From a bacterium (GTDB lineage Bacteria > UBA8248), in NCBI GenBank assembly GCA_965221165.1, contig CBDCRP010000002.1, positions 992,001-1,056,000 of the forward strand: a stretch of DNA of 64,000 bases, written 5' to 3'. Shown piece by piece: positions 3,936 to 22,124 of the stretch. The position numbers and the translations under genes were made by a program. A model generated the notes under the pieces. The model was not told where the DNA came from. It saw only the letters and a list, made by a program, of their open reading frames with translations, and searched no databases. Each line of letters opens with the position of its first letter. Within the stretch, counting starts at the first letter, position 1.

Positions 3936-4353
3936 TGCTATATCTCCTTCAGGGTCATTGTTGAACAATAAGGTAGATAGTTAGGTCCTCCGCGTAGATG
4001 AAGCCGAATTATACACGAATAAGATGTTGAAAATCGATGAAATTCTTATTCATACACCCGGCGTATCAGGCAGGGGACTTGCCCGGCCTGCTCTTGCCAG
4101 GAACGCGAAGGGCGGGATGACACGCAAGGCCATCATACTGATTACATGAATCATTTTGCAAAAGGTAAGGCGGGAGAGCGCCTCACGGAACTTATTGTGG
4201 GTGTTGTGCGAAGCACCAAAATCTTTGGGTGTGTGTTTCAGCGCCTGTTCGTCATGGGTACGCACAGTGGCGAGGACAGGCACAGGAGACTCCATGTGAA
4301 ATCTCAGATCGCTTGCACCTTATCGACTCTATGATGTTTCCTTGATTTTCAGG

Positions 4354-4392
4354 TGGCACGCCCGGTAGGACTCGAACCTACAACGTTCGGAT
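4354..4392 (-). repeat. Duplicated 3' end of tRNA-Arg(TCG); att-like island boundary
   Basis: tggcacgcccggtaggactcgaacctacaac-g-ttcggat matches 20281-20319 at 38 of 39 positions. Flanking tttccttgattttc also resembles tttccttgtttttc next to the intact tRNA. Confidence 0.9.
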
Positions 4393-4692: not shown

Positions 4693-5436
4693 ATGATACG
4701 CAGATACTTCTTACTTTTCGTTTTTTCCCTGCTTTTTCTTTTTATCCCTAACTCTTCCCTGGCAAAGTACAAGGTCGCGCCCACCGCAGGCGGCGGAACC
4801 ATCGCCGGCCGGGTGAGCTTCGAGGGGGATACTCCCGCCCCCGTCAAATACATCATTACCAAGGACCATCACGCCTGTGGCAAAGGCCAGGTCACCCGCC
4901 AGGAGGTGGACGTGAAGGACGGCGCTCTCCGGGGCGTGATTGTCTATCTCCACAAGGTCAAGAAGGGCAAAGCCTTTTCCAAAAAAATCCAGAGCGTCGT
5001 GGTGGACCAGAAGAAGTGCGCCTATGTTCCCTACCTGCAAGTAGTCGCCGAAGGGGGCAAAGTCACCATCCTGAACAGTGACTCTGCCCATCACAACATT
5101 CACACCTACGAGATCATAGGCCGCTCCAAACGGTCCATGTGGAACATCTCTCAACCCAAATTCCGGAAAAAAGTCGTTCGCAAGGCCAAGGTTCGGCGAA
5201 GCCCCATCGTCCGGATCGAGTGTGACGTACACAACTGGATGAAGGGATTCCTCTTCGTGGCCAGGAACCCCTATTACGCGATCGTGAGCGGGGATGGGGC
5301 CTTTCAGATCAAGAATATACCCCCGGGGAAATACTCCCTGCGGGCGTGGCATCCGGCTCTGGGGATCAAGAAGAAAAAGATCACCATTTCCGCCGGTGGA
5401 AAGGAGACTGCCGCCTTCACGTTCTCTTCGAAATAA
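4693..5436 (+). CDS. Exported cupredoxin-like / carboxypeptidase-regulatory-like domain protein with predicted type-1 Cu site
   Basis: Signal peptide, HHNIH followed by CDVHNWM (C-x2-H-x2-M), and C-terminal GAFQIKNIPPGKYSLRAWH beta-sandwich. Confidence 0.7.
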   Translation: MIRRYFLLFVFSLLFLFIPNSSLAKYKVAPTAGGGTIAGRVSFEGDTPAPVKYIITKDHHACGKGQVTRQEVDVKDGALRGVIVYLHKVKKGKAFSKKIQSVVVDQKKCAYVPYLQVVAEGGKVTILNSDSAHHNIHTYEIIGRSKRSMWNISQPKFRKKVVRKAKVRRSPIVRIECDVHNWMKGFLFVARNPYYAIVSGDGAFQIKNIPPGKYSLRAWHPALGIKKKKITISAGGKETAAFTFSSK

Positions 5437-5509
5437 GGCCGGATTTCCGGCCCAGAGGAGACGGATGTCCTATAGGGTATAGAACAGCTAGCTTTGGGAG
5501 GTAGGAAGA

Positions 5510-6616
5510 ATGGATTTAGTTCGCGCTGTCGGGTGTCGGGTGCTGAGCGGAATCCTGCTGACTGCCTGGATTTTTCTTCCTGCCGCGGGCTGGGGTGCTT
5601 CTTTCTCGCCTCTTCCGGCGCCCAAGGCCCAGAAGCCCGCCCGGACCGAGTTGGGCCGGCATCTGTTCTTTGAACCCCGGTTGTCGGGGGACGGAGGGAT
5701 CAGTTGCGCCACCTGCCATCAACCCGCCAAGGGATGGGGCGATGGACAGAGCCTGTCCACGGGCTATCCCGGGAGCAAGTATTTCCGAAACGCGCAGACC
5801 CTCCTGAACGCCACCTACCATAAACGAGTCTTCTGGGACGGTCGTCTGAGCGGGGCCGACCTGCCTACGCTCGTTCGGGATCACCTGACCGAGGCCCACT
5901 TCATGCTGGTTGACGGCCGGTTGTTTCCCGAGCGGCTCAAGCAGATTCCCCTTTATGTGAAGAAATTCAAAGAGGCCTACGGAGGGGAGCCTTCCTTCGG
6001 GGGCGCGCTGAAAGCCATCGCGGCGTTCCTCCATACCATCACCTCCCGGGACGTTCCTTTTGATGAGTATCTCAAGGGCGAGAAAAAAGCCCTTTCCTCC
6101 CAGGCCAAACAGGGCCTCGCCCTGTTCCAGGAGAAGGCCGGATGCGTCCAGTGCCATAACGGAGCTCTTTTGAGCGACGGAGACTTCCATGCGCTCGGCG
6201 TTCCTGAAAACGAGCAGATATTCAAAGATCCGCTGCGCCACATCACTTTCCGCCGGTTCAACAAGGTCATCGGCGTTCCGAATTTCATGAACCTCAGGGC
6301 CGACCCGGGTCTCTACGTCGTGACGAAAGAAGAGAGCGACCGGGGCAAGTTCCGCACGCCGACTTTGCGGGAAGTCGCTCGAACGGCCCCCTACATGCAC
6401 AACGGCGCATTCGCCACGCTTGAGGACGTCGTCGCCTTTTATGACAAGGGCGGCGGCCGCGGCCCCAACAAGAGTCCACGCTTGAAACCCCTGGGCCTCA
6501 AGGCGGATGAGCGTAAAGCCCTGGTGGAATTCCTGAAAAGTCTCTCCGGCGATCCGGTTTCCATGAAGGCGCCGAAGCTTCCCGAATATGAAGTCCGCAA
6601 GCTGGGTGATAATTGA
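5510..6616 (+). CDS. idrP: Di-heme cytochrome c peroxidase family protein (IdrP-like, first copy)
   Basis: Signal peptide, LGRHLFFEPRLS, CATCH, FWDGR, CVQCH, FRTPTLREVARTAPYMHNG; adjacent to idrB/idrA. Confidence 0.85.
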   Translation: MDLVRAVGCRVLSGILLTAWIFLPAAGWGASFSPLPAPKAQKPARTELGRHLFFEPRLSGDGGISCATCHQPAKGWGDGQSLSTGYPGSKYFRNAQTLLNATYHKRVFWDGRLSGADLPTLVRDHLTEAHFMLVDGRLFPERLKQIPLYVKKFKEAYGGEPSFGGALKAIAAFLHTITSRDVPFDEYLKGEKKALSSQAKQGLALFQEKAGCVQCHNGALLSDGDFHALGVPENEQIFKDPLRHITFRRFNKVIGVPNFMNLRADPGLYVVTKEESDRGKFRTPTLREVARTAPYMHNGAFATLEDVVAFYDKGGGRGPNKSPRLKPLGLKADERKALVEFLKSLSGDPVSMKAPKLPEYEVRKLGDN

Positions 6617-6626
6617 GGAGACGGCC

Positions 6627-7766
6627 ATGAAAAGACGAATGAAAAATTGGTTCGTGGGTTCAACGATGGCCGTTTGCTTCATCGCCGTCCTTCTGACGGG
6701 AGGAGCCGGCTCGGCCCAGGAGGGGAAATTCCCTCCCCTGGGACCCCTTCCGCCGGTTCCGGTTCCGGCGGACAATCCCACCTCTCCGGCCAAGGTGGAG
6801 TTGGGCAAGCTCCTCTTTTTCGACGCCCGGTTGTCGGGGGACGCCAGCACGTCCTGCGCCTCTTGCCACAGCCCGGAGAGCGGCTGGGGAGACGGGGGGG
6901 ATCTGAGCCGGGGTTATCCGGGCACGCAGCACTGGAGGAACTCCCAGACAATCCTGAATTCAGCCTATTACGCAAAATTGTTCTGGGCCGGCGAGGTTCC
7001 GAGTCTGGAAGCGCAAGCCAAGAGCGCCGCCACCGGCAACGTGGCCGGGAACGGCGACACCATGATGATGGAGGAGCGTCTGCGCCAGGTGCCGGAGTAC
7101 GTCAAACGCTTTCGCGAGGTATTCGGAGCCGCCTGGCCGACCATCGACGACGCCTGGCGGGCCATTTCTGCCTTCGAGCGCACACTGGTCTCCAGGGCGA
7201 AGGACGTGCCGTTCGACCGCCACATGAAAGGGGACCGCAAGGCGCTTTCAGAAAGCGCGAAGCGGGGGTTGGCTCTTTTTCGCGGAAAGGCCCGGTGTGT
7301 CCAGTGCCATAACGGACCCCTGTTGTCAGACGATGACTATCACAACATCGGCGTTCCCCAAAATCCCGCATTCGAGGAAGACCCCCTGCGGCAGATTACC
7401 TTGCGTTTTCAGCACGTGATTCGGGGAGTACCGGAATCCGTGTACCGAAAGGCGGACCGGGATTTGGGGCTCTACTACACCACCAAGCGCAAGGCCGACC
7501 GGGGGAAGTTCCGTACCCCCAGCCTCCGGGAGCTGAAATACACGGCGCCCTATATGCATAACGGCGCATTTTTCGAGTTGGAAGAGGTCATTGATTTTTA
7601 TGACGAAGGAGGGGGAGAGGACCCGAACAAAAGTCCCCTTCTCAAGAAATTGGGGCTTTCAGACGAGGAGAAGGAGGATCTGCTGGCCTTTCTGCTGTCG
7701 ATATCGAGCGATAAGCCTTTGCTCGTTCAGCCACCTGAACTGCCGCCGTACGCGGCCATGCCGTAA
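6627..7766 (+). CDS. idrP: Di-heme cytochrome c peroxidase family protein (IdrP-like, second copy)
   Basis: Signal peptide, LGKLLFFDARLS, CASCH, CVQCH, FRTPSLRELKYTAPYMHNG; GAGGAG RBS before ATG 6627; paralog of the preceding gene. Confidence 0.85.
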   Translation: MKRRMKNWFVGSTMAVCFIAVLLTGGAGSAQEGKFPPLGPLPPVPVPADNPTSPAKVELGKLLFFDARLSGDASTSCASCHSPESGWGDGGDLSRGYPGTQHWRNSQTILNSAYYAKLFWAGEVPSLEAQAKSAATGNVAGNGDTMMMEERLRQVPEYVKRFREVFGAAWPTIDDAWRAISAFERTLVSRAKDVPFDRHMKGDRKALSESAKRGLALFRGKARCVQCHNGPLLSDDDYHNIGVPQNPAFEEDPLRQITLRFQHVIRGVPESVYRKADRDLGLYYTTKRKADRGKFRTPSLRELKYTAPYMHNGAFFELEEVIDFYDEGGGEDPNKSPLLKKLGLSDEEKEDLLAFLLSISSDKPLLVQPPELPPYAAMP

Positions 7767-7776
7767 GGAGGAATCC

Positions 7777-8319
7777 ATGAGCCACGAAGCCAAGGAAACC
7801 CGGCCTTGCATGTCCCGGCGGGCCTTTCTCCTGACCGGCGGAACCGCCGTGAGCGTGGTGCTGGTTACGGGCATCCCCGGTCTGGCCGGGGCGGCCCTGC
7901 AGAAGGCTGCTTATCCCCGCAAGAGAATCGGCAAGCTCGGCAGTCTCAAGGTCGATGCGCCGCAATACTTCCAATACCCGTGGAAAGACGTCTTCTCGGG
8001 ATGCATGCTGCTCAAGTTGGGTGTCGAGGCCGGCGGCGGCGTCGGTTCCAAGAGAGACGTCGTGGCGTTCAGCACCATTTGCACCCACATGGGCGGTCCC
8101 CTTCAGGGCACCTACAACGGGAAGTACAAGGCCATTGGCCCGTGCCCCTTTCATTTGACGACCTTCGACCTGATGAAGCACGGCATGGTCGCGGCGGGAC
8201 AGGCCACGGAAAGCCTTCCCCAGGTCGTTCTGGAGACCCGTGGAGACGACATCTACGCGATCGGGATGATGGGCCTCATATACGGTTATCACTCAAACCT
8301 TGCGCCGCTACAGCGCTGA
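7777..8319 (+). CDS. idrB: Rieske small subunit of AioAB-like iodate reductase (IdrB), Tat-exported
   Basis: Twin-arginine SRRAFLL, Rieske boxes CTHMGG and CPFHLT, GQATESLPQV, GLIYGY; AAGGAGG RBS. Confidence 0.85.
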   Translation: MSHEAKETRPCMSRRAFLLTGGTAVSVVLVTGIPGLAGAALQKAAYPRKRIGKLGSLKVDAPQYFQYPWKDVFSGCMLLKLGVEAGGGVGSKRDVVAFSTICTHMGGPLQGTYNGKYKAIGPCPFHLTTFDLMKHGMVAAGQATESLPQVVLETRGDDIYAIGMMGLIYGYHSNLAPLQR

Positions 8320-8331
8320 GGAGGACGCACC

Positions 8332-10998
8332 ATGGCAAGAAGTGTGACCAACTACTACCTTGCGGAAGACAGTGTACCCCTCCCGCCGCCGGACGCGGAG
8401 GTTTTCACCACGGCGTGTGACTATTGCATCGTGGGCTGCGGGTACAAGGTGTACCGGTGGCCGGTCGGACGCGAGGGCGGACCCAAGGGCGTGGAGAACG
8501 CCTTGGGCGTCGATTTCCCAACCGGCATGATGAGCGGCGCCTGGATCAGCCCGAACATGCACAACATTATCCTGGTAAACGGTCGCCCCCACCACGTTAT
8601 CGTCATGCCCGATAAGGATTCGAAGGTCGTGAACGTAGGGGGGAACCACTCCATCCGGGGCGGCGTCCTGGCCAAGAAGCTTTTTAATCCCAACGAACCC
8701 TCGCAGGATCGCCTGCGTCAACCGATGATGCGGGTTCGCGGAACCCTCCAGGAGGTTTCGTGGGAAACGGCCCTGGGCGTCATGGCGGGAATCTCGAAAC
8801 ACGTCCTCGATAAGTACGGCGAGCATGCCTGGGCCATGAAGACGTATTCCTATCAGTATTTCGAAAATACATACGCCATCTCCAAGCTCGCTTTCCGCGC
8901 CATCGGGACGCCGGCCTACGCCCCGCACGACAAGCCGGGCCCCGGCCCGGACACGCCCGGGATCGATTTTTCGGGGATCAACCCCTTCAGCGCTTCTTAT
9001 GACGACTGGGGAGAGGCCGAGGTGATCTTCTTCTCCGGCGTCGATCCATGGGAAACCAAGTCGGTCTTGTTCACCTCCTGGATCATGGGAGGGAAAACGC
9101 CCGGCAAGAAGCTCGTCTTCGCCCTTCCCCGGAAGACCACGGGCGTGGCCTACGGTGAGAAACAGGGCGGTCTTTTCCTTCCGGTCATCCCGGGAACGGA
9201 TACGGTGCTTCACCTGGCCATCATTCGCCTGATCCTGGAAAACGGCTGGGAGGATAGGGAGTGGATTGCGCGAAAGTTGGCGAACAAGTGGGAGATAAAC
9301 TCCGGCATGGGGCGCGGAACCCGCAACACGCCGTGGCAGTGGGTCACGACCTGGGGCAAGTACGGGACCGACTTCGACGGCTACAAGAAGTGGATTCTAA
9401 GCTACCCCTACGCCGAGTTGGACCAAGCCGCCAAGATTACGGGCGTGTCCGCGGCATCCATTCGGAAGACCGCTGAAATACTGGCCAAGCCCAAACCCGA
9501 CGGGACGCGCAAGAAAACCTCGTTCATGCTCGAGAAGGGAAATTACTGGTGCAACAGTTTCGGGAACACGGCTTCCTTCGCGGCCCTCGGGCTGGTTTGC
9601 GGCGCCGGGTCGCGGCCAGGCCGTGTGATTTCCCGCGGAGGGGGGCATCAACGGGGCTGGATGGGCGCAGCCGGTTACCCGAGGAGCCTGTCTCCGGAGA
9701 AGGCGCCGGGACGCCGCAAGAAGGAAATCGATCTGGACCGGTGGGTCGTGGACGGCCACGTCCGCTTTGCATGGGTCATCGGAACCACCTGGTGTCAAGC
9801 CATGGCGGCTTCTCAGGAACTGATGGACGTCTTCCAGCGATTGACTCGCCACAATCCCCATCAGATCGATAGCTTCGACGTTGATGCGGCGGTGAACGCG
9901 CTCAAGCGACGTGCGGACGCCGGCGGCATGGTTGTGGCCCACCAGGACATTTACCCTGTTTCTCCGATCGGAACCGAGTATGCGGATCTGGTGCTTCCGG
10001 CCGCCACCTGGGGCGAGGAAGACTTTACCCGGTGCAACGGCGAGCGTCGCCTCAGGCTGTACAGCAAGTTCGCCGATCCCCCCGGAGAGGCCAGGCCCGA
10101 TTGGTGGATCATCGCAGCGTTCGCCAGGAAGATGGGATTCAAGGGTTTCGACTGGAAAGACAGCAACCAAATCTTCGAGGAGGCGGCCCGCTTCGGACGC
10201 AAGGGGGTACTCAACTACCATCCGCTCGTGGTGAAGGCCAAGCGCGAGGGGAAACGGGGCCACGAATTGCTCCGCGAATACGGGACCGGCGGCATTCAAA
10301 CCCCCATACGCATGGTCAAGGGAGAACTCGTCGGGACGAAGCGGCTCCATGATGAAACCCTTGAATTGGGAACCCCGGAAGGCCCCACGATGCACAGGAA
10401 ATGGCTCACCTCCTTCGGGACCCAGAGCGGCAAGGCGGTTTTGCTGAAAAGCTACTGGGAGGACTTCAAGGATTTCTACGATCGGGTTACTCCGCAAGGA
10501 GACGAGCTGTGGGTGACGAACGGCCGGATCAACGAGCTGTGGCAATCCGGCTACGACGACAAGCGGCGGCCCTATATCATGCAGCGCTGGCCTCAGCAGT
10601 TCCTGGAAATTCACCCGCAAGACGCCCGCGCCCGCGGCATCGAATCCGGAGACCTCGTGGCTATCGAGAACGACGACCTGCTCGTGCAGACGGGAGGATA
10701 CATCGGCGTCGACGGCAAGGAGCAGACGTTTACCGAGCTGATGAAGGCCGGACGAATCAAGAAAAGCAAGGGGAGCTTCACCGCGGTGGCCATCGTCACG
10801 GATGCGGTTCGGGCGGGCGTCACCTTCGCCTATTTCGGCTTTCCCGAAAACCCGGCCAATTCGGTGGTTCACCGGGTGCCGGACCCCCTGACCAACCGCT
10901 ATCGCTATAAGCTGGGCAAGGGGAAGTTGAAGAAGATTGGAGAATCTCCGCACAAGCATTCCCTGACGAGTCTTAGTTTCGTTCCCCGGACGCTTTGA
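8332..10998 (+). CDS. idrA: DMSO-reductase-family molybdoenzyme, arsenite-oxidase-like iodate reductase catalytic subunit
   Basis: [3Fe-4S] motif CDYCIVGC, VPLPPPDAEV, NHSIRGG, YSYQYFENTYAISKL, GRGTRNT, EKGNYW, GGGHQRG, NGERRLRLY and a C-terminal molydopterin-binding domain. These resemble IdrA as I recall it, and the two adjacent peroxidases fit Idr rather than Aio. Confidence 0.85.
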   Translation: MARSVTNYYLAEDSVPLPPPDAEVFTTACDYCIVGCGYKVYRWPVGREGGPKGVENALGVDFPTGMMSGAWISPNMHNIILVNGRPHHVIVMPDKDSKVVNVGGNHSIRGGVLAKKLFNPNEPSQDRLRQPMMRVRGTLQEVSWETALGVMAGISKHVLDKYGEHAWAMKTYSYQYFENTYAISKLAFRAIGTPAYAPHDKPGPGPDTPGIDFSGINPFSASYDDWGEAEVIFFSGVDPWETKSVLFTSWIMGGKTPGKKLVFALPRKTTGVAYGEKQGGLFLPVIPGTDTVLHLAIIRLILENGWEDREWIARKLANKWEINSGMGRGTRNTPWQWVTTWGKYGTDFDGYKKWILSYPYAELDQAAKITGVSAASIRKTAEILAKPKPDGTRKKTSFMLEKGNYWCNSFGNTASFAALGLVCGAGSRPGRVISRGGGHQRGWMGAAGYPRSLSPEKAPGRRKKEIDLDRWVVDGHVRFAWVIGTTWCQAMAASQELMDVFQRLTRHNPHQIDSFDVDAAVNALKRRADAGGMVVAHQDIYPVSPIGTEYADLVLPAATWGEEDFTRCNGERRLRLYSKFADPPGEARPDWWIIAAFARKMGFKGFDWKDSNQIFEEAARFGRKGVLNYHPLVVKAKREGKRGHELLREYGTGGIQTPIRMVKGELVGTKRLHDETLELGTPEGPTMHRKWLTSFGTQSGKAVLLKSYWEDFKDFYDRVTPQGDELWVTNGRINELWQSGYDDKRRPYIMQRWPQQFLEIHPQDARARGIESGDLVAIENDDLLVQTGGYIGVDGKEQTFTELMKAGRIKKSKGSFTAVAIVTDAVRAGVTFAYFGFPENPANSVVHRVPDPLTNRYRYKLGKGKLKKIGESPHKHSLTSLSFVPRTL

Positions 10999-11049
10999 TG
11001 GAGATGGATGCTTACAAACCCGTAGAACCGTGAGGGAGGTTGAAAACGA

Positions 11050-11430
11050 ATGACTCGATCGAGAAGCTTTTTCATCTGCGCCATCGGCGTACTCGGAATG
11101 GCGATCTTTTTCTGGTCCTCTAATGACGGCGTCGCTCAGCAAAAAGGCGACGCTGCGGCCGGCAAGGTCAAATACCAGCAGCTTTGCGCCTCCTGCCACG
11201 GGGCGAAGGGCAAGGGCGACGGTCCCGCTGCCGGTGCGCTCAACCCGAAACCCAGAAATCACACGGACGCCAAATATATGAAGACCATATCGGATGAGTA
11301 TATCGCCAAGATCACCAAGCTAGGCGGCGTCGCGGTAGGGAAATCGCCGTTGATGCCCCCCTGGGGCGGAGTTCTTTCGGACCCGGACGTCCGAAACGTA
11401 GTCGCATTCATTCGCTCCCTGGCGAAATAG
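11050..11430 (+). CDS. Periplasmic mono-heme class I cytochrome c
   Basis: Signal peptide, CASCH, KGDGPAA..LNPKPRN and distal Met in MPPWG. Confidence 0.9.
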   Translation: MTRSRSFFICAIGVLGMAIFFWSSNDGVAQQKGDAAAGKVKYQQLCASCHGAKGKGDGPAAGALNPKPRNHTDAKYMKTISDEYIAKITKLGGVAVGKSPLMPPWGGVLSDPDVRNVVAFIRSLAK

Positions 11431-11434
11431 GAGC

Positions 11435-13492
11435 ATGGGGATGGATTCAGGGAATCGGGATACTCTCCCCCCCGAGCGCTCCTTTCGGGTCGAGTTGCCC
11501 GGCCACGACCACTGGCGGAAAACGATTTCTTGCCAGGCGGCCTGTCCCGTCCATACGGACGCGCGGGGTTACGTGACCGCAATCTCCGAGGAGGACTTTG
11601 AGCGTGCATATATCATCGCCCGGGGACCAAACCCCTTTGCGTCCGTTTGCGGACGCATCTGTGCGGCGCCGTGCGAAGCGGCCTGCCGCCGCGGCAACAT
11701 CGACGCGCCGGTGGCTATCCGGGCGCTCAAGCGATTCGTAACGGAGCGCTACGGGGTAGAGGCCGATTTGTCGTCCGGAAAGAGAGAAACCCCCTTCTCG
11801 CACCGGAGCCTCGGGAGTCTGCGCGATCTCCGTTTTCAGCCCTCCACACGCACCATCAACGATTTCTCGGTGCTGGAGGCGGCCCGCCGGAAACCCGAAC
11901 AGGGAAAGACGGCGGGGAAAAAAGTGGCCGTCGTCGGATCGGGTGTAGCGGGGTTGACTTGCGCCCACGATCTCGCCTTGCTCGGCTATGACGTGAGCGT
12001 TTTCGAAAAGCAGGGAGTCCCCGGAGGCATGCTGATGCTCGGGGTTCCTGAGTACCGGCTTCCGCGCGATCTCGTTCAGGCCGAGATCCAGGCCATACTC
12101 AGCCTGGGTGTGGAGCTACGACTGAACAAAGCCATCGGGCGAGACTTCGACCTTTCCGCTCTTCGCGAGGAAGGCTTTGAAGCGGTGTTCATCGCCATCG
12201 GCGCTCATGTAAGCCGCAGCCTTCCCGTGGAGGGGCGGGACGCAGACGGTGTTTTCCGGGCCGTTGAATTTCTGCTGAACGTGAATCTGAATTTCCGCGT
12301 CGAATTGGGTGAGCGCGTCGTCGTGATCGGCGGGGGAAACGTGGCCATGGACGCCGCCCGGGTCGCCGCCCGGGTCGCCGGTCAGGCGGATGTTCCCTCG
12401 AGCGTGAGCGATCAAACGGAGGACGCCGTCCACATGCGGGAAATGATGGACGTGGCCCGGCAGGCGATGCGCGTAGGAGCGAGGAGCGTCCATGTCGTCT
12501 GCCTGGAATCCCGCGATGAGATGCCGGCGTCGGATTTCGAGATTGAAGAAGCGCTGGGTGAAGGGATCGAGATCGAGCCTCGGGTGGCACCCATTCGTAT
12601 TGTAGAGAACGGGGGCCGGGTGGCCGGGCTGGAAGTCCACACATGCACCCGTGTCCGTGACGAAGAGGGCCGCTTCAGTCCGGAATTCGAACCCGGCACC
12701 AATCGCGTGATTCCGTGCGATTCGGTAATCGTAGCCGTCGGCCAGTCCTCCGACCTGTCCTGGATCGGCGAGGAGGACGGCATCGAGACGACGCCGCGAG
12801 GGACAATCCGTATAGATCCCCAAACCCTGGCCACAACCGCACCGGGCGTGTATGCGGGAGGAGACGTTGCCCAGGGCCCCCGGATCTTCATTGAAGGGGT
12901 GGAAAACGGCCACCGGGCCGCTCGCTCCATCCACACCTATCTTTCAGGCGGCCAGGTCAACGTCCAGACCCATTTTCAGTGGGCCCCCATCGAACCCTTG
13001 CGGCAAGCGCTGCTTCAGGAGCCGGGAGATGGATTTTCGCTCCCCATCGTCAATCCCGGCTACCAGAAAACTTCCCGGCGAAACCCCGACGCGCTGCCCA
13101 TCGAGCGCCGAATCGGCGTCGCCGAGGTGGAACTGGGCTATTCGCCCGGGGAAGCGGTCGATCAGGGAGTCCGGTGCCTGCGCTGCAGCGCGAATCCGAT
13201 CTTCGACGGCGCCAAGTGCATCCTGTGCGGCGGTTGTGTGGACGTCTGCCCGTCACGCTGCCTTCGAATGGTTCCTCTGGAAGCCCTTCAGGGAGGAGAG
13301 GATCTGGCGGCTTTGATCCGCACTCGCTACGGGACGTCCGCCGGGGGCGCCGGAGAGGTGGGAAGAGGCGCGGCCATGATCATGGATCCGGACGCGTGTA
13401 TCCGTTGTTCGCTCTGTGTGCAGCGTTGTCCCACGGGCGCCGTCACCATCGAGAATTTTTCTTTCCAGGAAGAATGGGTGGAGCTTGGATGA
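11435..13492 (+). CDS. FAD/NAD(P)-dependent Fe-S oxidoreductase (GltD/NfnB/DsrL-like) with C-terminal 2[4Fe-4S] ferredoxin
   Basis: CQAACPVH...CGRICAAPCEAAC, GSGVAG, GVPEYRLP, IGGGNVAMD, AGGD, RCLRC, CILCGGCVDVCP, CIRCSLCVQRCP; no signal peptide. Confidence 0.88.
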   Translation: MGMDSGNRDTLPPERSFRVELPGHDHWRKTISCQAACPVHTDARGYVTAISEEDFERAYIIARGPNPFASVCGRICAAPCEAACRRGNIDAPVAIRALKRFVTERYGVEADLSSGKRETPFSHRSLGSLRDLRFQPSTRTINDFSVLEAARRKPEQGKTAGKKVAVVGSGVAGLTCAHDLALLGYDVSVFEKQGVPGGMLMLGVPEYRLPRDLVQAEIQAILSLGVELRLNKAIGRDFDLSALREEGFEAVFIAIGAHVSRSLPVEGRDADGVFRAVEFLLNVNLNFRVELGERVVVIGGGNVAMDAARVAARVAGQADVPSSVSDQTEDAVHMREMMDVARQAMRVGARSVHVVCLESRDEMPASDFEIEEALGEGIEIEPRVAPIRIVENGGRVAGLEVHTCTRVRDEEGRFSPEFEPGTNRVIPCDSVIVAVGQSSDLSWIGEEDGIETTPRGTIRIDPQTLATTAPGVYAGGDVAQGPRIFIEGVENGHRAARSIHTYLSGGQVNVQTHFQWAPIEPLRQALLQEPGDGFSLPIVNPGYQKTSRRNPDALPIERRIGVAEVELGYSPGEAVDQGVRCLRCSANPIFDGAKCILCGGCVDVCPSRCLRMVPLEALQGGEDLAALIRTRYGTSAGGAGEVGRGAAMIMDPDACIRCSLCVQRCPTGAVTIENFSFQEEWVELG

Positions 13493-13493
13493 C

Positions 13494-13985
13494 ATGACTG
13501 CGAGCCTGGATGAATCGACCCCCCGGCGGCGGATGCTTTTGGGTCTCGGCTGGGTTTCCTTCCTGGTCTCCCTGCTGGGTCCGGTTCTCGCCAACGTCCG
13601 GTTTTTGTTCCCCAACGTCGTTTATGAAGGCGAGGCAGTTCTGAAACTCGATTCCCTGAAGAAGTACCCCGTGGGTTCCATCACGTTTTTTGCAGAAAAA
13701 AAAGTGGTTCTTTTCCGTGAAAAGGACGGATTTAGGGCCTGTACGGCCGTCTGTCCCCATCTTCGTTGTGTGATTGGTCCCTTCGTCGGGGCGCCCGGGG
13801 CGTCTCCTGATATTTTAAGGGCCCGGTGCCCGTGCCACGGCAGCACTTTCGACGGCCGGGGACAGGTGCTCGGGGGGCCTGCGCCTCGAGGACTCGATTT
13901 TTTCCTCGTAACGAAATCGCCGGATGGCCGCGTCGTGGTCGATACGCGCAAAGTCGTCGGTCCCTCCGAGCATTTCAGACTCTGA
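13494..13985 (+). CDS. Rieske Fe-S subunit of a Rieske/cytochrome b complex
   Basis: RRRML plus TM anchor, CPHLRC and CPCHGS boxes, GPAPRGL. Confidence 0.88.
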   Translation: MTASLDESTPRRRMLLGLGWVSFLVSLLGPVLANVRFLFPNVVYEGEAVLKLDSLKKYPVGSITFFAEKKVVLFREKDGFRACTAVCPHLRCVIGPFVGAPGASPDILRARCPCHGSTFDGRGQVLGGPAPRGLDFFLVTKSPDGRVVVDTRKVVGPSEHFRL

Positions 13986-13994
13986 GTCGACATC

Positions 13995-15491
13995 GTGGCT
14001 ATTGAACCCCCACCGAAATCAGGGCGCAGAAAAGCCGCATCCTGGATTAGGGACAACCGCGTAGTCCGCTCGATCTTCCGCCGCGGCTACCCGGACAACG
14101 ATCTGGACCGCTCGGCGGTCATGTTCTCTAATTTCTTCCTTCACGTCCTTCCCGCGCGAACACACGTCAACAGCCTGAAGCCCACCTACACCTGGGGGCT
14201 CGGCATCATCTCTTTTTTCCTCTTTCTCATTCTTACGGGCACCGGCTTTTTGCTCATGTTCTTCTACGTCCCTTCGACCGAACGCGCCTATAACGACATG
14301 AAAGACCTGCAATTCGTCGTCTCCTACGGCATTGTCTTGCGAAACCTCCATCGCTGGGCTGCCCATGCGATGGTCGCCATCGTCTTTTTGCACATGTGCC
14401 GGGTGTTCTACACGAGCAGCTATAAAGCGCCCCGTGAGTTCAACTGGGTTATCGGGGTGCTCCTCTGGGGGGCGACCCTGATGATGAGCTTCACGGGCTA
14501 TCTGCTCCCCTGGGATCAACTCGCCTATTGGGCCATCACCGTCGGGTCGAGCATCGCCAGCTATCCGCCCCTGGTTGGAGAATACATTCGCACCCTGATG
14601 CTCGGAGGCGACACGGTGGGGCAAAACGCCTTGATCCGGTTTTACGTCATGCATGTCGTGGTCCTGCCGGGCATTATGCTCATACTCATGGGCGTCCATT
14701 TCTGGCGGATTCGCAAAGACGGGGGCCTCTCTCGTCCACCCACGGAGCCCCTGAAGGCCGCTGTAGGCAAGTCGGCGGCTTTTTCGCCGCACAAGACATA
14801 CATGCTCGTGGAACTGGCGGAAGGCAAAACGCCCATGGTGGATGCCCAGGCCCCGGAGGAAGAGGTCATGAGTTGGCCTCACACGGTTTTCAGAATGCTG
14901 GTCGTCTTCGTGGGAGTCGTGGCGGTTCTCTCCGCCGTCGCCTATTTTTTCGATGCTCCTCTGGAGGAGTTGGCCAACCCCGAGCATCCGCCCAACCCCG
15001 CCAAAGCCCCCTGGTACTTCCTTGGACTTCAGGAAATCGTGAGCTATTCCGCTCTGGCGGGAGGCGTCATCGTTCCCGCCGCTGCGATTATCGGCCTCAT
15101 GAGCATTCCCTACATAGACCGCAACCCGGAGGGCCAGGGAAATTGGTTCACCTCACACCAGGGTCGGCGGATTACGCTTGGGTCGGTCCTGGCGATTATT
15201 CCGGTCGTCCTCATCCTGACCTATCTGAACGAGCACTACGCCGTGCGGAAGCTGGTTCCGGGCGCTCCGCAAATCTGGGTCGACCTCTTGAATCCGGGGA
15301 CCATACTGATCGCTCTGTTCGCCGTCGGGTCGCTTTACACCTGGCGGCGGACGGGGTCGAGCCGGATGGGGGCCTTGGCCTTGTATTCTTATTTTCTGAC
15401 GTCTTATGTGATTTACACGATCATCGGGCTTTATTTTCGTGGAGCCAACTGGGCCTGGATATGGCCGTGGCAGGCCATGGGCCTGCACTGA
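13995..15491 (+). CDS. Cytochrome b (b6 and subunit IV regions in one chain) of Rieske/b complex
   Basis: LHRW...[25 protein letters not shown]-x14-H in helix D ([17 protein letters not shown]) and Qo motif variant KAPWYF; extra C-terminal helices. Confidence 0.9.
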
Positions 15492-15503
15492 GGCCGATAA
15501 CGA

Positions 15504-16307
15504 ATGACGAATTCAACGCAGAATAATTCCTATGTACCGTTCGGGTGGGTGGTCGCATTCGCCGTGCTGAGCGTGTGCGCGGCCTTATTCTTTCTGCTGT
15601 CCGTCTGGAAGGATTACGACCGCGAATGGAGGGGCTATCAACGGACGTTCCGTGAAATGCTCGTCGCAAGAACAGAAAGCGAAGAGGAGCGTAAAACCGT
15701 TCTGGCGAGCGGAGATCAATTCGAGCAGATCATCGTGGACCGAGGCGAGCGCGTAGACAGGTGCGTCATGTGCCATCGGGGAATCGAGCACCCGGCGTTT
15801 CAGGGCGCCGCTCAACCCTTCGCCAGCCATCCCTCCATCCCGCTGCATCCCTTCGAGCAATTCGGTTGCACCGTGTGCCACCAGGGCCAGGGCAGGGCGA
15901 CGACCCTTCAGGATGCCCACGGAGAAGTCCGGTTCTGGGAGGAGCCGCTCCTCCGGGGAGGGTTCATTCAAGCCAGTTGCGGTCCGTGTCACGCAGGCGT
16001 TTTGAAAGAGGCCCCTCTCATTCAGAAGGGAAAGCTGCTTTATCTGATGAACGGCTGCATCGCCTGCCACAAAATCAGGGGAGCCGGCGGGGTTGTCGGG
16101 CCCGACCTGACGTTTGCGGGGGAGCGCCGGAAAGACCCGAAATGGCACATCGAACATTTCAAGGCCCCGCAAAGGGTTTCTCCCGGATCCGCCATGCCCG
16201 CCTACACCCACTTGTCGCCGGCGGACCTCGAAGCGCTGACGGTTTACATGTTGAGCCTCCGCAGGGCCCCTTCCGCCTTGGCGCTGGCTGCACCCAGAAA
16301 AAAATAG
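15504..16307 (+). CDS. Membrane-anchored tetraheme cytochrome c
   Basis: N-terminal TM helix; CVMCH, CTVCH, CGPCH, CIACH; C-terminal GPDL...SAMP class I domain. Confidence 0.88.
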   Translation: MTNSTQNNSYVPFGWVVAFAVLSVCAALFFLLSVWKDYDREWRGYQRTFREMLVARTESEEERKTVLASGDQFEQIIVDRGERVDRCVMCHRGIEHPAFQGAAQPFASHPSIPLHPFEQFGCTVCHQGQGRATTLQDAHGEVRFWEEPLLRGGFIQASCGPCHAGVLKEAPLIQKGKLLYLMNGCIACHKIRGAGGVVGPDLTFAGERRKDPKWHIEHFKAPQRVSPGSAMPAYTHLSPADLEALTVYMLSLRRAPSALALAAPRKK

Positions 16308-19952: not shown

Positions 19953-20280
19953 TAACCGAGGGAAGACAAGCGTGACCGTCTTGTCCCAAAATTGAGATAT
20001 CCCTGCTTGAGGAGAACAAGAGAGCGGAGACTCCGCATCGATAACACAGTGTGTCCTACGTGCAAAGCCAAGGAGCACATCGAAAATTAGGCAGAAACCT
20101 CCCCGGCAATTCACCGAAGAGCGAATCGATAAGGAGTAAATCGAGTGTCTGTTTTGGTGGACGTTTTTGTGCCTGTTACATGGACATTTCAGGATACATA
20201 GAGATGCAAAGAGAACCAATCTAAAATCTATAGATTTTTTCTATCTATTCGATTTTGTTTAGTATTTCCTTGTTTTTCCA

Positions 20281-20357
20281 TGGCACGCCCGGTAGGACTC
20301 GAACCTACAACCTTCGGATCCGAAGTCCGACGCTCTATCCAATTGAGCTACGGGCGC
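20281..20357 (-). tRNA. tRNA-Arg(TCG)
   Basis: gcgcccgtagctcaattggatagagcgtcggacTTCGgatccgaaggttgtaggttcgagtcctaccgggcgtgcca folds as a cloverleaf with anticodon TCG and encoded CCA. Confidence 0.96.
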
Positions 20358-21018: not shown

Positions 21019-21912
21019 CTACTCCCCCTCGAATGGCTTTCTGCGCACCCTGCCCTCGCCCACCAGGGCCGCCTTCATGAGGAGAACCAAGGTGTTGGTT
21101 CTGGGGATGAGGTGGATGAAGCGATCGAGCTTTTGATCGATCACGTCGATTTCGCCCTCGGAAAGTCCCAGCGCCGCCGCCCGCTCCCTGCTCAGATCGA
21201 CGGCGAAGGGAAACTCCTGGGCCGCGGCAGCCGCAGCGCCTTGCGCCTGGGTGACGGTAATCCTGTACCCCGCCTTCGCCATCTCTTCTTTGAGAAACGG
21301 CCACACCCGCTCCAGGAAGGCGGGATGATGCCCGAGGGCGCGCCAGACGCTGCCCAGCCCCCCGGTCGCCTCGCGAATCTCCTGGTACAGAGCGCCCAGC
21401 GCATCATCGGCGGCGGCCGGGTCCACCAGAGCCTCCGCGCGCATCGAGGGGGGTGGCCCCTTGGGCAGCGCATCGGTGTCCGCGTCCGATCCGGGCCGGA
21501 CGCCGCCTATCTTCATGCCGTTCAGCGCGCCCTTCAAGGCTGCCGCGAGAATGAGGTTCTTGGGATTCGCATGGTTGTATATGTCCAGGACGCCATCGAC
21601 CGCGTCGATGTCCTCAGGCGTGTAATCGAAATCATCTTCTAATTCTTCTCCCACGTCGGGCACGTCGGGCGGCATGGGCGGGGCCATCCGCATCCTGAGG
21701 TTATCCGCGCAGCGCTCGAAATAGGCTATCGAGGCGTTGGGTCTGAGCGCATCCCAGGCCGCGGAAAAGTATTGTTCATGAACGGCCAGGGTGCGATAGA
21801 TGAGGTTCACCTGCGTGCTGCGGAGCACCCGACGCATGTCTTCATAGATCGCCGCAACCTTCCCGGTGGCGCGATCTTCGGTGATTTCATCCAGGGCGAT
21901 GGGTTTCATCAT
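21019..21912 (-). CDS. Group I haloacid dehalogenase (DehI)-family protein
   Basis: Internal two-fold repeat (ATGKVAAIYEDMRRVLR / AADDALGALYQEIREAT), AWDALRPN, NHANPK; GGAGG RBS before MMKPI. Confidence 0.7.
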   Translation of the reverse strand: MMKPIALDEITEDRATGKVAAIYEDMRRVLRSTQVNLIYRTLAVHEQYFSAAWDALRPNASIAYFERCADNLRMRMAPPMPPDVPDVGEELEDDFDYTPEDIDAVDGVLDIYNHANPKNLILAAALKGALNGMKIGGVRPGSDADTDALPKGPPPSMRAEALVDPAAADDALGALYQEIREATGGLGSVWRALGHHPAFLERVWPFLKEEMAKAGYRITVTQAQGAAAAAAQEFPFAVDLSRERAAALGLSEGEIDVIDQKLDRFIHLIPRTNTLVLLMKAALVGEGRVRRKPFEGE

Positions 21913-22079
21913 TTCCCCCTTCAAGGCCCGTAAGGCAAAAGCTGAAACAGCGGCTCGGCGAGGCGCCGCGCGAATCGCCCAGAGTATAGGGGTGGTCAGT
22001 GGATGGAACAAGCCGGGAGCAGGCTCTCGAGCCGGTTTGGCTCCAAAACGCATTTTTTTCAAAAAAACAAAAAAATCCC

Positions 22080-22124
22080 TTGACACGAAAGTTGAATGGC
22101 AATATATTTGATTTAGTCAAATAT
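22080..22124 (+). promoter_or_regulatory. Sigma70 promoter with overlapping palindromic operator
   Basis: TTGACA (22080-85), 17-bp spacer, TATATT (22103-08); perfect palindrome ATATTTGA-n5-TCAAATAT at 22104-22124; further half site ATATTTGA near 22136. Confidence 0.8.

Follow-up and report, generated by a model that had tools for sequence, protein, structure and literature searches.

How does a bacterium that carries an iodate reductase deliver electrons to it? The question is posed by ten genes in a 64,000-nucleotide stretch of bacterial DNA (positions 992,001 to 1,056,000 of contig CBDCRP010000002.1, assembly GCA_965221165.1, GTDB lineage UBA8248; hereafter the window), where genes for an Idr-type molybdoenzyme and its peroxidases run on into genes for an iron-sulfur (Fe-S) flavoprotein, a Rieske protein, a cytochrome b and a tetraheme cytochrome c. 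The electron route to IdrAB is simply assumed in the idr papers, and the function of flavoprotein-bearing Rieske/cytochrome b complexes has been proposed, not measured (published work is cited here by PMC number, and what is said of it refers to the passages retrieved from each paper). On balance, we favour the reading that the downstream block encodes a complex dedicated to Idr: it would oxidise menaquinol and feed IdrAB and IdrP by way of either a small cytochrome c or a cupredoxin, while its flavoprotein would connect the low-potential branch to NAD(H). On the same reading, the ten genes form an integrated respiratory island that moves as a unit. An earlier note on this DNA had listed ten co-oriented, tightly packed genes with named products; all ten open reading frames were found on the plus strand (4693..16307), their order and identities were checked in the sequence, and the successive gaps between them are 73, 10, 10, 12, 51, 4, 1, 9 and 12 nucleotides.

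The first half of the locus resembles known idr clusters throughout. IdrA of Azonexus hydrophilus NCP973, an iodate respirer on record (PMC13455634), shares 58.5% identity with the window's large subunit; the figure is 57.8% for Roseovarius azorensis WP_093034476.1, the protein recovered from the active band (PMC11445184), and 60.3% for a protein of Notoacmeibacter marinus, a species tested for iodate reduction, though perhaps in another strain. Against five AioA sequences, identity is 28-31%. In a FastTree phylogeny of 49 large subunits, from which one locus with internal stops (L040) was left out, the five AioA are split from the IdrA side by a branch of length 1.05 with support 1.00, and the window's protein groups with its own phylum (1.00) inside a Rokubacteria/Methylomirabilota branch. 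The active-site motifs HDKP and GHQR also occur in two of the three tested IdrA, the third, that of NCP973, having HDKC and GHQC; all five AioA have HNRP and GHQE at these positions. The first and second peroxidases are 49% and 60% identical to the corresponding IdrP of NCP973, and the small subunit is 57% identical to its IdrB. The two di-heme peroxidase genes, idrB and idrA lie in the conserved order P-P-B-A, which has been used as a mark of Idr (PMC8692401), and inspection with hydropathy places a twin-arginine motif on IdrB, Sec-type signals on the IdrP and none on IdrA. Judged by sequence, the large subunit belongs to IdrA and the core to the IdrABP1P2 family, as the earlier note had proposed from the letters alone.

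The islands of Pseudomonas sp. SCT, Denitromonas iodatirespirans IR-12, A. hydrophilus NCP973 and R. azorensis share with the window this gene order, a Rieske subunit that bears a signal for twin-arginine translocation (Tat), a molybdenum subunit without a signal and their island character. Gene-by-gene identity to NCP973 is 49-60%, and that strain also has a small cytochrome c gene right after idrA, whereas the window differs from these systems in its deeper IdrA branch and in an extra cupredoxin. That the described idr clusters come without a defined electron donor chain, another point of the note, agrees with the statement that the IR-12 cluster has no quinone oxidoreductase (PMC8692401); in contrast, the window's block includes a complete Rieske/cytochrome b complex and a flavoprotein. 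Database searches label the core as arsenite oxidase, since it passes the cut-offs of TIGR02693 and TIGR02694, and AioAB does share the pairing of a Rieske with a [3Fe-4S] molybdenum subunit. We nevertheless reject this identity: the large subunit falls outside the AioA clade across the long separating branch, at the identities given above, it lacks the HNRP...E and GHQE motifs, and two peroxidases are present.

The second half is also of a described type, a point that the earlier note had overlooked: Rieske/cytochrome b complexes of this kind are on record (PMC12954380, PMC5600118), mostly without idr. The Rieske protein encoded at 13494-13985 finds its best two PDB matches in Kuenenia, in the Rieske proteins 9rk4 (E 1e-15) and 9rk3, and its cluster motif is of the Ser-Phe type, a group described as mid-high potential (PMC4122944); Kustd1480, likewise a Ser-Phe Rieske protein, was measured at +335 mV (PMC12954380). 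Box 1 of the block's Rieske protein reads CPHLRC or CTHLRC, not CTHLGC, in all block copies of the phylum, and the glycine is kept in the housekeeping copies. The flavoprotein has NfnA-type 9bov/9bp5 as its best PDB match, 9bp5 being the structure used to model the Kuenenia flavoprotein subunit (PMC12954380), and in 26 aligned rows it shows 12 invariant and four near-invariant cysteines and an invariant K99. Where YRR stands in NADP(H) enzymes, it has a motif of the LES type, which the example of DsrL-1 (PMC7596348) suggests to be a mark of NAD(H) rather than NADP(H) use. In an 85-row alignment of cytochrome b, which includes many near-identical relatives and the window twice, four heme histidines (119, 133, 220 and 235), H50, C135 and KAPWY are present in every row, and none has a cysteine at the CxGG position of heme cn. 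C135, two residues after the heme ligand H133, is not invariant in a 26-row alignment. The N-terminal H50 may correspond to Kuenenia His43/His62, for which a role in holding an extra b heme at the dimer interface has been proposed. A complex prediction for cytochrome b (residues 20-300) with the flavoprotein (15-683) scored 0.28 against a mark of 0.32 and speaks neither for nor against contact.

The nearest known counterparts are the Kuenenia stuttgartiensis complexes Kuste4569-4574 and Kustd1480-1485. Shared with them are an Nfn-like Fe-S flavoprotein in which a lysine, putatively equivalent to K99, replaces a cluster cysteine, a b6-type cytochrome b, a multiheme cytochrome c in place of c1/f, the closest solved Rieske structures and, if H50 is its counterpart, the N-terminal invariant histidine. 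The window differs in that cytochrome b and subunit IV are fused (they are split in Kuenenia, with heme cN) and the CxGG/heme cn motif is lost, in a multiheme cytochrome with four hemes rather than six or eight (its homologues elsewhere also have six or eight), and in its neighbour, a molybdoenzyme instead of an HAO-like partner, as well as in a host that appears organotrophic. By analogy, the window's complex probably works like the Kuenenia-type NAD(P)-linked complex, and we do not file it as that exact complex. It may also be likened, by description, to cytochrome b subfamily G or clade G' (PMC5600118) and the APWY clade (PMC4122944), with which it shares APWY, a Ser-Phe Rieske protein and operons with an NAD(P)-binding Fe-S oxidoreductase, the last reported for subfamily G (PMC5600118); the passages of both papers hold no link to idr. 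With its Fe-S flavoprotein gene apparently operonic with Rieske, cytochrome b and multiheme cytochrome c genes, the downstream block is a described yet uncharacterised complex type, like Kuste4569-74 and Kustd1480-85, and is not specific to idr.

Two candidate carriers could link the enzyme to this complex. The predicted fold of the 4693-5436 product, a cupredoxin domain with a second beta-sandwich (predicted local distance difference test score 90.6), matches amicyanin, plastocyanin, pseudoazurin and NirK cupredoxin domains, and H134/H137, C177, H180 and M183 are invariant in 12 aligned homologues; it is a candidate type-1 copper electron carrier. Its family occurs at 17 of 34 idrA-type loci, and the word cupredoxin is absent from the main text of PMC8692401 as retrieved. 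The same family stands beside idr at 13 of 30 loci outside the phylum, and more distant relatives lie just upstream of the flavoprotein gene in eight idr-free loci (L065, L066, L076, L107, L108, L137, L138 and L139). The second candidate is the small cytochrome c, whose gene heads the downstream module in relatives.

How far the pairing of idr with the block extends decides between a general and a local role. In a metagenome scan with the cytochrome b alignment, in which the best 80 of 417 confirmed loci were examined and many contigs were short, cytochrome b is accompanied by the flavoprotein at 75 loci, the Rieske protein at 77 and the multiheme gene at 71; idrA is present at one, in a 95% identical relative. 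Among 46 idrA-type loci from named genomes, the block occurs at 13, all of this phylum, a further two are cut by contig ends, and within the DNA examined around each it is near none of the 31 idrA-type loci outside it. A whole-genome search of 30 of these 31 outside genomes found a single full-length flavoprotein orthologue, away from the idr locus. The survey of idrA neighbourhoods that the earlier note had called for therefore bears out the association inside the phylum and not beyond: among the genomes surveyed, the pairing is confined to one small phylum, and the proposal that the block is the missing wiring, or electron donor, of Idr in general is rejected. At other deep idr loci (L016, L020, L022, L025, L034, L035 and L042), idrA is followed or neighboured by different membrane modules. 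Seven of 34 idr loci encode a cytochrome bd subunit I-like protein, seen together with a diheme cytochrome c; an EB_dh-type heme b protein also occurs, and loci of the Planctomycetes/SAR324 type have a Fer4_5 membrane protein and SCO1. The wiring of idr seems to differ by lineage.

Within the phylum, the linkage that the note had drawn from one locus is conserved. Of 51 genomes, 17 have idrA and 20 the block; all 17 idrA genomes carry both, and in 15 the two lie within 10 kb on one contig. A contig break within the cytochrome c gene divides the locus of G015, and in G022 the idr core and the block sit at contig ends, with idrA itself cut. Both elements are present in 15 genomes of the window's genus (G022 counted) and both are missing from eight. 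The block, which belongs to a different subtype in G036, lies upstream of the idr core there and downstream in G007 and the window's genus, so that the link survives rearrangement, which counts in favour of a dedicated complex. The same reading draws on the placement and motifs of IdrA, the conserved linkage, the joint presence or absence in the genus, the island unit, the host's MqnC and complex I, and the presence of a further Rieske/cytochrome b operon, with WCMGG, in this genome and across the phylum, which makes the island copy an extra one.

The main competitor is that the five-gene module is shared cargo, a general low-oxygen redox hub between menaquinol, NAD(H) and periplasmic cytochromes that serves several acceptors or none in particular, while Idr would draw on the housekeeping chain, the route proposed for Denitromonas. 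We consider this a serious but rather unlikely account. It gains from the metagenome counts, in which the flavoprotein adjoins cytochrome b almost everywhere and idrA appears once, from stand-alone copies of the block behind a regulator of their own, from co-distribution with a NapA-like enzyme (present in 17 of the 20 block genomes) and from an exact copy of the cytochrome c gene before the NapA-like operon of this genome. Against it, gaps of only 51 and 4 nucleotides join the two halves, the linkage holds for two gene orders whose blocks are of different subtypes, and the NapA-like operon has NapG/NapH-like genes of its own.

Several observations also weigh directly against a dedicated complex. 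The 80 metagenome loci yielded the lone idrA just mentioned; G048 has idrA and the block unlinked, and in G040 and G050 the block is present but idrA was not found. An Rrf2-like gene precedes the block in all three genomes (family scan on the G048 copy only), and G040 has a NuoG-like formate dehydrogenase gene some 1 kb away from its idr-free block, in the same orientation (L054:14811-17549). As the genomes are kin, the counts may reflect only one or two linkage events, and the block also tracks the NapA-like enzyme. The window's own sub-branch of the 49-sequence tree holds no tested IdrA, internal and deep nodes are weakly supported in places, and the same broad clade takes in Dehalococcoidia enzymes that lack peroxidases. 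Complexes with APWY are associated with reverse operation (PMC4122944), and four genes suffice in tested iodate reducers and even in E. coli (PMC13455634).

If the complex is dedicated, its operation may be pictured as follows, from gene content and general bc chemistry laid over the observed genes, cofactor motifs, family placement, linkage and borders. IdrAB, exported by Tat, would reduce iodate in the periplasm, and IdrP1 and IdrP2, as members of the Idr family, would remove the peroxide by-product. The Rieske/cytochrome b complex would oxidise menaquinol at its Qo site, and the high-potential electron would pass from the Rieske protein through the tetraheme cytochrome c and the small cytochrome c and/or cupredoxin to IdrB and IdrA, and to the peroxidases. 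The cytoplasmic flavoprotein would couple the n-side of cytochrome b, and so the low-potential branch, to NAD(H). The flow from NAD(P)H to Rieske/b that the earlier note had drawn keeps its place as one of two possible directions, with NAD(H) in place of NADP(H). We lean tentatively to the other, anammox-type direction, in which the second quinol electron would reduce NAD+ by way of the b hemes and the Fe-S chain and complex I would re-oxidise the NADH; the lost heme cn/CxGG motif, the invariant H50 and the Ser-Phe Rieske protein fit a Kuenenia-type electron exit of this sort. Entry of NADH through the flavoprotein to re-reduce menaquinone, for which the organotrophic host and the portability of the unit speak, seems to us somewhat less probable. 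For the Kuenenia complex, too, the coupling of NAD(P)+ reduction to quinol oxidation is a proposal, in which quinol electrons would be bifurcated to NAD(P)+ by way of an extra heme that the N-terminal histidine binds (PMC12954380). With textbook potentials, and before the cost of membrane crossing, we compute -8.5 to -15.7 kJ/mol for bifurcation.

It is possible, if doubtful, that the locus is a bifurcating iodate-respiration module, in which menaquinol electrons are split between iodate, a very high-potential acceptor reached through Idr, and NAD+, a loop of NADH and complex I replaces the Q-cycle, and the whole moves between orders as a unit. Were this true, it would be the first of its complex family to have a defined terminal acceptor encoded alongside. 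One ten-gene block holding donor complex, carriers and acceptor enzyme would make the anammox bifurcation proposal testable outside anammox cells, and a poorly understood NAD-linked complex that is debated in those bacteria gains a concrete, testable partner. An uncultured phylum-level lineage is added to the candidate iodate reducers; the picture for proteobacterial ones is unchanged. Both halves were already described, and within the literature searched their joining in one island is a lineage-specific novelty: the titles, abstracts and passages searched, a scope that excludes subscription journals and the figures and supplements of PMC8692401 and PMC13455634, contain no report of idr and a Rieske/cytochrome b complex in one island.

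That the ten genes travel together is suggested by their borders. A 56-nucleotide copy of a tRNA-Arg 3' end (4337-4392) forms a direct repeat with 20265-20319, and at locus L010 only the ten genes lie between tRNA-Arg and its duplicated 3' end. Relative to L010 and L012, the ten-gene unit is inverted in the window and a TRAP transporter has been added; between the two repeats, no integrase was seen. Twelve loci present at least six flanking contexts. In G007, a genome of a different order from the window's, the genes are arranged alike, and its flavoprotein, cytochrome b and IdrA are 76-83% identical to those of the window. RelA of G007 is 50% identical, against 63-71% in genomes of the window's family, whose block proteins stand at about 60%. 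Trees of the block proteins join G007 with the window's genus at 1.00, the IdrA tree leaves its placement open (0.55), and CoxI identities of 68-72% are uninformative on transfer. The NapA-like enzyme is likewise slightly closer in G007 (85% versus 81-84%), which weakens the case for transfer. Taken together, the sequence data from G007 and the flanks fit transfer of the ten genes as a unit.

The host bears on two further rivals. Its non-proteobacterial nature, as the earlier note had supposed, agrees with the records of its nearest relatives (Nitrospinota or 'bacterium'), and UBA8248 is listed among the classes of sponge metagenome-assembled genomes (PMC9531527). The assembly (3.69 Mb, 96% complete, 8.5% contaminated) encodes MqnC, complex I subunits and an aa3-type oxidase; to call the locus self-contained, as the note did, goes too far, since the host must supply menaquinone, molybdenum cofactor, Tat and heme maturation. 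RuBisCO, acetyl-CoA synthase and ATP citrate lyase were not found in this 96% complete genome; a PF16114 hit was rejected as ATP citrate lyase, being a succinate/malate-CoA ligase-like domain. With these markers not found there is little need for reverse flow, in which the molybdoenzyme would oxidise an inorganic substrate (arsenite or a reduced halogen) and the complex would run uphill to menaquinone and NAD+. We judge this rival improbable. AioAB ancestry, an IdrA branch without a tested member and the APWY Qo motif, uncharacterised and described as typical of reverse-running complexes (PMC4122944), lend it some weight; the active-site motifs, which match tested IdrA and not AioA, and the presence of both peroxidases take weight from it.

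Most improbable, in our view, is that the same wiring serves another oxyanion (bromate, chlorate or similar) or mainly detoxifies iodate and peroxide under micro-oxic conditions rather than supporting growth. Such a role would suit the branch without a tested member, the aa3-type oxidase and the finding that in aerobic idr carriers iodate reduction is not accompanied by anaerobic growth (PMC11445184). A dedicated energy-conserving complex, however, exceeds the needs of detoxification, an expressed SAR324 idr cluster from outside the isolates' clade reduced iodate (PMC13455634), and the only PF06778 protein scores as HemQ, so that a chlorite dismutase acting on hypoiodite was also rejected. Among seven other PF00384 loci scanned, NarG/Nxr was the best score for none (an eighth, among complex I genes, was outside the scan).

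Table 1. Features of the idr island and its borders, in window coordinates.
Feature	Position	Strand	Basis
Exported cupredoxin-domain protein, candidate type-1 copper electron carrier	4693..5436	+	Fold model, invariant ligands
IdrP-type di-heme cytochrome c peroxidase, first copy	5510..6616	+	PF03150, 2 CxxCH
IdrP-type di-heme cytochrome c peroxidase, second copy	6627..7766	+	PF03150, 2 CxxCH
IdrB, Rieske small subunit, twin-arginine signal	7777..8319	+	TIGR02694 above cut-off; SRRAFL
IdrA, [3Fe-4S] molybdoenzyme large subunit, without signal peptide	8332..10998	+	Identity, tree, motifs
Exported monoheme cytochrome c	11050..11430	+	Domain search; opens the five-gene module where relatives have it standing alone
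Cytoplasmic GltD/Nfn/DsrL-like FAD and Fe-S NAD(H) oxidoreductase	11435..13492	+	PF14691, PF07992, Fer4
Membrane-anchored Rieske protein, Ser-Phe type	13494..13985	+	CPCHGSTF; PDB matches 9rk4, 9rk3
Fused cytochrome b6 and subunit IV, 498 aa, APWY Qo motif	13995..15491	+	PF00033/PF00032
Membrane-anchored tetraheme cytochrome c	15504..16307	+	4 CxxCH; one N-terminal transmembrane helix
tRNA-Arg(tcg) 3'-end copy with flank, att-like scar, left island border	4337..4392	-	91% over 56 nucleotides to 20265-20319
tRNA-Arg(tcg), right island border	20281..20357	-	TRAP transporter between tRNA and ten genes

For the genes starting at 6627, 7777 and 13494, the tabulated starts probably lie later than those of the longest open reading frames; purine-rich ribosome-binding sites precede the first two. 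Per-gene G+C (0.55-0.63) resembles that of the remaining window. A simple promoter/terminator scan found no terminator-like site in the gap at 10998-11050; its 18 hits do not clearly exceed the mean of 13.3 for shuffled sequence, which leaves the scan with little weight. The gene order recurs in 12 related loci with idrA-to-cytochrome c gaps of 52-59 nucleotides and in two more with wider gaps (455 and 171), and the junction is therefore not an assembly accident. In two contig sets, which may be the source sample, cover spans the stretch with no credible joint.

An exact 697-bp copy of window positions 10804-11500, comprising the end of idrA, the whole cytochrome c gene and the start of the flavoprotein gene, lies elsewhere in the same genome (G000:C2:626476-627172; L152, L162), directly upstream of an operon for a diheme cytochrome c, the NapA-like enzyme and NapG/NapH-like proteins. 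This is the only one of the 51 genomes with two such copies, and contig depth at the copy is about doubled in one run, a weak sign; it is either a recent duplication or an assembly artefact. A mis-join of idrA to the cytochrome c gene through this duplicate was rejected, as the junction is kept in single-copy relatives. Two formate dehydrogenase loci that are near-duplicates and share their neighbours (G000:C3:2500-8500 and C2:101000-107000; L148, L149) may reflect the 8.5% contamination or strain mixing. Beside the tRNA cluster at the island border, at 21019-22086, lies a gene resembling those for DehI-family halocarboxylic acid dehalogenases, which is also present at L010 and L012.

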